From Mytilus californianus (taxonomy: Eukaryota), in assembly GCF_021869535.1 (NCBI RefSeq), contig NW_026262723.1:107570001-107634000 (forward strand): 64,000 nucleotides of DNA, in the 5' to 3' direction. The notes under the pieces were generated by a model, which saw only the letters and a list, made by a program, of their open reading frames with translations, searched no databases and was not told the DNA's origin. The position numbers and the translations under genes are program-made. Below, in pieces: positions 23,968-24,732 of the stretch; positions within the stretch are counted from its first letter, which is position 1; every line of letters starts with the position of its first letter.

Positions 23968-24732
23968 TCACTTCCTGCGCGGAATACTAAGGAGCCCCCT
24001 AGCTACCTCCTCTTTGTAATTTGGGTGTCCATGACCCAGGTTGGACATCCATGAATGTTTAAAGTATGGTGCATAACTCTCAATAAGAATTGTGTTGAGT
24101 GGCAGGGACGACACCATTATTCCCAGCTGTTCCTCATTGAAACTCAGTACTTCGGCCGTAAAGCCGAATGTGGAAGGAGGCTTTTCCAAGGGTGTACTTC
24201 GGCCGTAAAGCCGAAGTACACCCTGGGAAAAGCCTCCCTCCACATTCTGGCTTCCTGCCTCCCCCCAGAAAAACAATGAATGTGTATTTTCTGCATCTGG
24301 CTCACCTTCTCCTGGACGGCGGCAAAGCATTGCCGGTGAGCCTCTTGGCTATACTGGTCATTAGGGGCTCCCTTTACATTGGCGTTGTCAGAGAATCCAG
24401 AGCCCCTAAAAACTTCAGCCACATGATCAGACATGACGTGTGGCTGAATATAAAGAGCCCTGATAGGACACCCCGGTATTAGGCATTCCTGGAGTGTAGG
24501 AATGCCCCTACCGTCCACATTCCCTACAGGGGGTACCACCTGTCCCCTCTGCTGAGGCTGTTTCTGAGTGCGCCTATCTATGGCTGGCGATGGCTGGCAA
24601 CGCTCCCGATTTGGTGGAGCCCTCTGCTCCCAGTGGGTGAACTCCGTCCTTGTGCGACTCCCACTTATGAAATGTCCCGCCTCAGCCTTAGGTGGCATTG
24701 TTGGTGGTGCCCTCTGTTCCTGACTTGTGAAT
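23968..24732 (-). pseudogene. tatD-like: Zinc-finger plus TatD-like nuclease region of the Gypsy element, copy 1 (N-terminal barrel half missing; frameshifted)
   Basis: IHIHCFSG, WREAFPRVYFGFTAEV and SLPLNTILIESYAPYF resemble the TatD HCFSG and LLLETDAPY motifs. C-x4-C-x9-H-x4-H at 24485-24423. A 47-nt insertion splits the frame into ORFs 24144-24698 and 23968-24330. Confidence 0.78.

Follow-up and report, generated by a model that had tools for sequence, protein, structure and literature searches.

Results

Organization of the locus

A GC-rich island (47-51% GC against ~33% around it) lies within the window, by which we mean the whole 64-kb stretch of DNA that was analysed. The minus strand of the island carries the remains of a mobile element whose 3' end is doubled by a duplicate; the two units are denoted here copy 1 and copy 2. 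Read 5' to 3' through copy 2, the order of the element is a broken gag, a Tpt1 domain, a protease, the stretch that precedes the reverse transcriptase (RT) and a third frame, denoted ORF3. Its plus-strand GC skew is -0.11 to -0.16, that is, the sense strand is G-rich. The features outside ORF3, together with the second copy of ORF3, are as follows.

31154..32664, minus strand: gag remnant (capsid region and two CCHC knuckles), broken, first ~185 codons lost
30400..30900, minus strand: Tpt1/KptA RNA 2'-phosphotransferase domain between gag and protease, with one internal stop (PF01885, 109.9 bits with X at the stop)
29257..30103, minus strand: pol remnant, aspartic protease (AVVDTAA) and the stretch preceding RT
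28617..29256, minus strand: ORF3 remnant of copy 2, lesions identical to those of copy 1
27960..28181, minus strand: 3' LTR of copy 2
23475..23481, minus strand: polypurine tract (PPT) core GGGGGAG, adjoining the LTR
23253..23474, minus strand: 3' LTR of copy 1, 222 bp, TGTGGT...ATACA, its start agreeing with the PPT-LTR junction of relatives
20018..29256, no strand: duplicate doubling the 3' end of the element (20018-24549 equals 24730-29256 at 99.6% identity)

The element is almost certainly the decayed remnant of a Gypsy LTR retrotransposon whose clade has the plan LTR - gag - pol (protease, RT, RNase H, integrase) - ORF3 - PPT - LTR. Neither an RT, an RNase H or an integrase of this element nor a 5' LTR was found within the 64-kb window. 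Since the pol remnant of copy 2 is joined directly to ORF3 at 29256/29257, RT, RNase H and integrase have been deleted. Besides these and the 5' LTR, the copy has lost ~300 codons of ORF3, and what is left of ORF3 contains two frame breaks. The window copy is dead, and an active nuclease cannot be made from its ORF3.

The same ORF3 lesions are found in both copies and are therefore older than the duplication; the span itself may be a tandem duplicate or two alleles in the assembly. Copy 1 keeps 180 more ORF3 bases than copy 2 and then ends at a repeat at 24730. The initial annotation, made from the letters alone, had placed this region between pol and the PPT, which is loosely right: copy 1 has no pol upstream and abuts the duplicated repeat, and in copy 2 the pol match ends at 29256, before RT. 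It had also assigned the whole region to both copies, and this was borne out for the finger and TatD parts but not for a low-complexity stretch with the repeated motif EQRAPP, which is absent from copy 2.

A PPT followed by a TG...CA 3' LTR is present (23481-23475 and 23474-23253), and within the window the LTR of copy 1 is matched only by its duplicate at 27960-28181. The junction, a G-run, then AG or AA, then TGT, is common to the relatives L024, L028, L031, L045, L051 and L052 (by pattern) and L060 (by eye), while most of the remaining relative contigs stop too early for the junction or show none. No tRNA gene was found in the window. The named proteins closest to the parts of the element are Mytilus gene models (75-85% identity), which makes a Mytilus mussel the probable host, and the protease region of the linked loci described below is 39-42% identical to that of the window. 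The protease motif reads D-T/S-A-A in the window (29258-29956) and in nine of ten relatives checked; the usual motif is D-T/S-G. Contigs of three DNA runs from two organisms cover every bin of the element, some at 80-90% identity, pointing to related copies. In one RNA run, of which ~6% was read, no read fell on the TatD stretch at 80% likeness.

Several other genes and repeats surround the element. Carboxylesterase genes form a cluster at 374-948 (-), 6436-7971 (-), 14243-15775 (+) and 32699-34237 (+), and directly after the second of them is an array of ~12 copies of a 92-bp unit (16690-17797). The element adjoins the upstream side of the last carboxylesterase gene, which compared with a paralogue seems to be without its first codons and ~440 bp upstream; this 5' loss is probably the same deletion that took the 5' LTR. 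A very high-copy repeat fragment with an RT-like frame and a huge summed read depth, presumably Penelope-like, occupies 20018-21370 and 24730-26082 (+); both units of the duplicate start inside it, and its RT-like frame has no Pfam support. At 55158-57645 (-) there is a decayed tyrosine-recombinase retroelement, which we take to be DIRS/Ngaro-like, with a phage-integrase match and with RT-like and gag-like frames upstream. A LINE-like ORF2, of which the C-terminal part is present, was recognized by eye at 50518-52518 (+) along with a short RT-like frame; the two long frames there gave no Pfam match. Exons or fragments of a fucosyltransferase (glycosyltransferase family 10) are at 43792-44316 and 47460-47942 (+).

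ORF3 of the window is a broken finger and TatD frame

In copy 1 the remnant of ORF3 consists of the following parts.

24550..24729, minus strand: low-complexity ORF3 stretch (EQRAPP twice), copy 1 only, cut by the duplication breakpoint, matching the relative P0025
24423..24485, minus strand: C-x4-C-x9-H-x4-H finger, beginning of a ~140-residue finger-plus-helical domain
24378..24395, minus strand: in-frame internal deletion junction; helical domain, linker and N-terminal TatD half (HxH, GExGLD, LxH) gone
24186..24377, minus strand: TatD profile positions 140-203 (IHIHCF, YFGF), 73.4 bits
24147..24193, minus strand: 47-bp fold-back insertion at a small hairpin, breaking the frame (z = -12.4)
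23992..24174, minus strand: TatD profile positions 192-249, ESY at the ETD site, 29.8 bits
23910..23975, minus strand: last TatD helix and stop codon, in a third frame

The motifs that had been read by eye were all located on the minus strand: EQRAPP twice, at about 24719-24702 and 24629-24612, the C-x4-C-x9-H-x4-H motif at 24485-24423, and IHIHCFSG, YFGF and LPLNTILIESYAPYF, in which the Asp of the ETD site is Tyr. Two further motifs, HxH and GExGLD, had been reported missing and are both absent. An internal deletion had been suspected near the junction of GFSDNA and NVKGA, and it is there that the finger-domain match ends (24396) and the TatD match begins (24377, profile position 140 of 274). 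The equivalent span in 51 relatives is 252-495 residues (median 321), confirming the deletion in the window.

The motifs share one region, as had been proposed, but not one frame, the TatD part being split into three. The first break is the 47-bp insertion, in which a 28-bp inverted copy of upstream sequence (2 mismatches) is combined with a 19-bp direct repeat; the second lies near 23990-23975. The boundary formerly drawn at 23968 has to be moved, as the last TatD helix continues to a stop at 23912-23910. The metal-site residues of the window copy are not intact: HxH, GExGLD and LxH are deleted, the Asp is changed to Tyr and the frame is broken twice. In TATDN3 the Asp equivalent to this Tyr site has a 30-fold effect (PMC10085689).

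The Pfam profile PF01026, suggested earlier as a check, matched two window pieces, but at 19.5 and 18.1 bits, under the 27-bit cut-off. A family profile built from natural relatives scored 73.4 and 29.8 bits on the window TatD pieces, against at most 3.1 bits for 200 codon shuffles read in three frames each. The finger is 75-81% identical to Mytilus gene models over 32-33 residues. A sequence search of the PDB with the second TatD piece returned no match.

Relatives carry ORF3 as a separate third gene of gag-pol elements

A HMMER search with the first window TatD piece detected 160 proteins at E <= 0.001. Many of the best 150 of these, which were listed, are 450-1500 residues long with a C-terminal TatD as their sole Pfam domain (55 scanned). 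When the same piece was used in a word-based search, none of 264 candidates proved to be a longer homologue. Common to the relatives are the finger, a helical domain ending NSPAxLxHWR, a linker and a complete TatD. Those from Mytilus are annotated "putative deoxyribonuclease TATDN2" or "tatD", with many gene models per species.

Scanning for the family HxH motif gave 40 loci, 26 from metagenomes and 14 from genomes, and the family is present in 29. The other 11 (L027, L029, L033, L035, L040, L049, L050, L053, L054, L058 and L061) were chance or bacterial matches and were removed before linkage was counted. Of the 12 family loci whose upstream DNA reaches 2.5 kb or more, 11 have a pol gene there on the same strand, as do all eight whose upstream DNA reaches 3.5 kb or more; the linked loci are drawn from few source assemblies, and three of them supplied pol queries, each being matched by other queries as well. 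The sole exception, L048, is a locus that is entirely ORF3. The pol match of L052 is an RT fragment within the finger-helical domain and was not counted as linkage.

RT, RNase H and integrase were detected by Pfam in the pol frames of linked loci, whose ORF3s score 120-142 bits with PF01026, far over the 27-bit gathering score. L028, L045, L056 and L059 each have gag, a pol frame of 1425-1823 residues and a separate ORF3 of 716-1081 residues; their pol order is protease, RT, RNase H, then integrase, of which the window keeps only the protease. The earlier reading had left it undecided whether the region was a separate ORF or an extension of pol. In all six relatives with a readable pol end and a full ORF3 (L025, L028, L045, L056, L059 and L060) the two are separate; ORF3 is a separate ORF and not a pol extension. 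Over the 700-1100 residues of the frame, a disordered N-terminal stretch is followed by a Cys2His2 finger fused to a helical domain, then by a linker and lastly by a complete TatD barrel of the HxH type.

The relatives whose surroundings could be read are not single-copy, intron-bearing host genes unlinked to LTR elements. They are uninterrupted frames 3' of integrase, with gag-pol upstream and a conserved PPT-LTR junction downstream, and the intact copies recovered carry a complete TatD, in most cases with its metal-binding residues kept. This linkage supports the core of the initial annotation, a TatD-like nuclease with a zinc finger in the third-gene slot of an LTR element, internally deleted. 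The "env position" assigned to it stands as the slot after pol; the term is positional only, and by hydropathy and Pfam content ORF3 is not env-like.

Some further properties of the relatives were noted. A PHD finger closes the pol frame in two of them (L024:3832-5229 and L051:3423-4076), and gag starts with a helix-hairpin-helix motif in L028, L045 and L060. Eight loci (L048, L051, L052, L055, L056, L057, L059 and L060) sit in contigs of bacterial genome bins titled Sedimenticola sp., where ORF3s are annotated as "TatD family hydrolase" of the bacterium; these contigs are most likely animal host DNA in the bins. L060:1-11205 is a circular permutation of one whole element with 88 identical bases at both ends. 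Its one LTR-like stretch separates ORF3 from gag, and a contig of this form would be expected from a young multi-copy family or a one-LTR circle.

Conservation and origin of the TatD domain

Of 74 full-length domains (median pairwise identity 37%), 69 keep every one of the seven active-site positions. The set holds duplicates and near-copies, and because its loci were picked by the HxH motif, conservation at two of these positions is inflated. dN/dS is 0.10-0.24 in six locus pairs of more than 90% identity, and pN is lower than pS in 296 of 296 pairs. These ratios indicate purifying selection on the TatD of ORF3.

A tree of 67 TatD domains, built by a quick search without bootstrap, contained 36 family members, five TATDN2-like animal proteins, three divergent finger-bearing proteins and 23 prokaryotic and viral domains; human TATDN1, 2 and 3 were not included. 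The 36 family rows form one clade (SH-aLRT 98), which joins the TATDN2-like and divergent finger-bearing rows at 99, apart from the 23 prokaryotic and viral rows. Against TATDN2-like proteins one ORF3 domain scored 62-106 bits; its score against TATDN3 was 32 bits. The HxH motif marks class II TatD enzymes, to which TATDN2 and TATDN3 belong and TATDN1 does not (PMC10085689), and its presence in ORF3 excludes class I and TATDN1. From these comparisons, ORF3 likely acquired its TatD from the animal TATDN2 lineage, and the tree favours a single capture, made less certain by P0131 and P0139, which fall beside TATDN2-like rows, and by P0137, which is unplaced. These three proteins, each of which has a TatD along with a finger or helical domain, lie outside the main element clade and could be an early branch or a second capture.

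Viral contigs were searched as well. The family alignment retrieved 21 loci, all among prokaryotic and viral TatDs (16 of the 21 are in the tree), and the window TatD piece retrieved no relative from them. In an AlphaFold model of the relative P0006 (mean pLDDT 82.5) the N-terminus is disordered, and a folded finger-helical domain and a TatD barrel follow. With this model the top Foldseek matches were all TatD (E 2e-14 to 1e-10), solved TatD structures being matched at E of about 1e-14 to 1e-12, which points to a TIM-barrel fold.

The finger-helical domain of ~140 residues was modelled confidently on its own (pLDDT 92). It had no Foldseek match at E <= 0.001, its best Z in a wide structure search was 3.2, all its Atlas matches were under 0.9, and none of 17 members scanned showed a Pfam family in it. 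An absence of matches is all that these searches show; they do not establish a new fold.

A second captured enzyme in a Mytilus branch

The Tpt1 domain at 30400-30900 (-), between gag and protease, had been overlooked in the initial annotation, as had the frame breaks of ORF3, the helical domain that accompanies its finger and the absence of RT to integrase. It matches the TRPT1 structures 7yw2 and 7yw3, which we take to be those of the mouse and human proteins, and is 82-85% identical to Mytilus edulis gene models. The window and most of 15 relatives contain the motifs LRHG, DKRF and RMSRQH, presumably the Arg-His...Arg...Arg catalytic set of Tpt1; in P0160 the motifs are altered.

Ten of the 11 longer Tpt1 homologues are Mytilus gene models, and several fuse Tpt1 to a gag-type N-terminus (helix-hairpin-helix) or to a protease. 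Such models, named TPT1/TRPT1, come from Mytilus edulis, M. coruscus and M. galloprovincialis. A single M. edulis model, P0166, unites gag, Tpt1, the finger-helical domain and the beginning of a TatD whose HxH is intact. None of the 40 motif-scan loci contains Tpt1, from which we conclude that a single branch acquired it. The four proteases that carry Tpt1 group in a branch of their own (SH-aLRT 99, 10 rows). By this evidence Tpt1 is a later addition, made between gag and protease in a Mytilus branch. No complete Mytilus element in which Tpt1 and RT accompany an undamaged ORF3 was found as DNA, and the link is provided by the window and the gene models P0166 and P0047.

Tpt1 enzymes strip 2'-phosphates from RNA, and some members cap 5'-phosphate ends with ADP-ribose (PMC10275265). 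It is possible, and we offer this tentatively, that the Mytilus branch carries a two-enzyme kit for processing nucleic-acid ends, in which an ORF3 with a TATDN2-derived RNase or 3'-nuclease would be paired with an NAD-dependent Tpt1 beside the capsid. Tpt1 would then strip blocking 2'-phosphates or ADP-ribose-cap 5'-phosphate ends of element RNA or cDNA inside the particle, and TatD would remove RNA that otherwise marks or stalls the element. If true, such a kit might point to an unrecognised step of the LTR life cycle and would give a testable job to two puzzling enzyme families.

Discussion

The accessory nuclease gene of this Gypsy clade is conserved and real, and apparently it is undescribed. 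The closest known counterparts are Juno and Vesta of bdelloid rotifers, Gypsy-like elements in which a captured, catalytically intact nuclease likewise forms a separate third ORF replacing env, and its function is predicted there as it is here (PMC5408684). Their enzyme is a DEDDy 3'-5' exonuclease, whereas that of ORF3 is a TIM-barrel TatD; the folds are unrelated and the hosts different, and only the TatD elements have the finger-helical domain and, in the Mytilus branch, Tpt1. Animal TATDN2, sister to the family in the tree, also has a C-terminal HxH-type TatD barrel after a long disordered N-terminus (PMC10711561, PMC10085689, PMC12709183). The rows named TATDN2 read HRHCF or HCHCF where the element form reads HLHCF, and the element form adds the finger-helical domain, an uninterrupted frame and many copies. 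Cellular Tpt1/TRPT1/KptA resembles the Mytilus domain over its full length and in the arginine and histidine motifs, but here the domain is embedded between gag and protease of a Gypsy element.

Errantiviruses that carry env have a similar three-ORF layout (PMC13524379), while ORF3 here is a predicted soluble enzyme; the words "TatD", "nuclease" and "phosphotransferase" are absent from the main text of that paper. Gypsy clades, including C-clade and MolGy1-16, are listed in PMC6238403. "TatD" is absent from its main text and searchable supplements and from the main texts of PMC10294476 and PMC8556966. Within the literature searched, which left Repbase and subscription journals outside, we found no report of TatD or Tpt1 in a retrotransposon.

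What ORF3 does for the element has to be judged from its relatives. We propose, at roughly even odds (about 0.5), that it is an accessory ribonuclease, which would serve the element by removing R-loops or structured RNA. Nucleic acid would be gripped by the disordered stretch together with the finger-helical domain, and the two-metal TatD barrel would degrade the RNA strand of R-loops or of other structured RNA, as human TATDN2 does. Clearing this RNA would keep a GC-rich element with a G-skewed sense strand transcribable; alternatively, RNA left on reverse-transcription intermediates would be cleared. A G-rich sense strand favours R-loops, and the sense strand of this element (~50% GC in a host of ~33% GC) is G-rich. 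Human TATDN2 degrades the RNA of R-loops and needs its disordered N-terminus for binding (PMC10711561).

Other TatD enzymes are DNA 3'-exonucleases and AP endonucleases (PMC10085689), and ORF3 may instead process DNA, as an AP endonuclease or a 3'-5' exonuclease that would trim or repair the cDNA or the integration site. AP-endonuclease activity is known for TATDN1, TATDN3 and three E. coli TatD paralogues, and 3'-exonuclease activity for TATDN1 and TATDN3 (PMC10085689); the HxH class II site of ORF3 is common to TATDN3 and YcfH. The clade nearest to ORF3 is TATDN2-like, however, and human TATDN2 is little of a DNA nuclease, with very weak activity on abasic sites (PMC10711561). An unrestrained 3' exonuclease would also be expected to endanger the cDNA ends required by integrase, and we consider a DNA-processing role rather improbable.

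ORF3 could also counteract silencing, by degrading small RNAs of the host or the precursors of these, or else the RNA through which silencing complexes are held on the nascent transcript of the element. It is a separate soluble frame with a finger of nucleic-acid-binding type, a link to silencing pathways was raised for the DEDDy ORF3s by Rodriguez et al. (PMC5408684), and the PHD finger at the pol end of L024 and L051 points to contact with chromatin. On the other hand, the whole barrel is conserved over deep divergence, which a fixed biochemical job fits at least as well as an arms race, and we regard such a role as unlikely.

That this insertion took up its TatD passively, as a host TATDN2 gene or a retrocopy with no role in the element, is very improbable. 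In its favour, Mytilus relatives are publicly named TATDN2 or tatD and the window copy is dead; but pol lies upstream in 11 of the 12 informative loci, the family clade is apart from host-type TATDN2 rows, selection between element copies is purifying and the Mytilus gene models are many. An env-like entry protein, suggested by the position after pol and nothing else, is the least credible reading, since ORF3 has no clear membrane anchor (highest 19-residue hydropathy 0.95-1.65 in seven ORF3s, six of them under 1.5) and the linked ORF3s that were scanned contain no Pfam family besides TatD.

ORF3, with RNA clearing as its favoured role, adds a new kind of captured enzyme to those of LTR retrotransposons, conserved across a deep clade and not a one-off. 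For annotation, it appears that retrotransposon cargo accounts for the multi-copy Mytilus models named "TATDN2", "tatD" and "TPT1/TRPT1" and for the "TatD family hydrolase" entries in symbiont bins. For reasons of solubility, a TATDN2-like enzyme could not be tested in one study (PMC10085689); the family offers many natural variants of such an enzyme, together with a ~140-residue finger-helical domain that has no Pfam match. With the DEDDy case of rotifers, it suggests that the third-gene slot of Gypsy elements is repeatedly filled by 3'-5' nucleases whose folds are unrelated, and this repeated recruitment points to a shared need of Gypsy elements.
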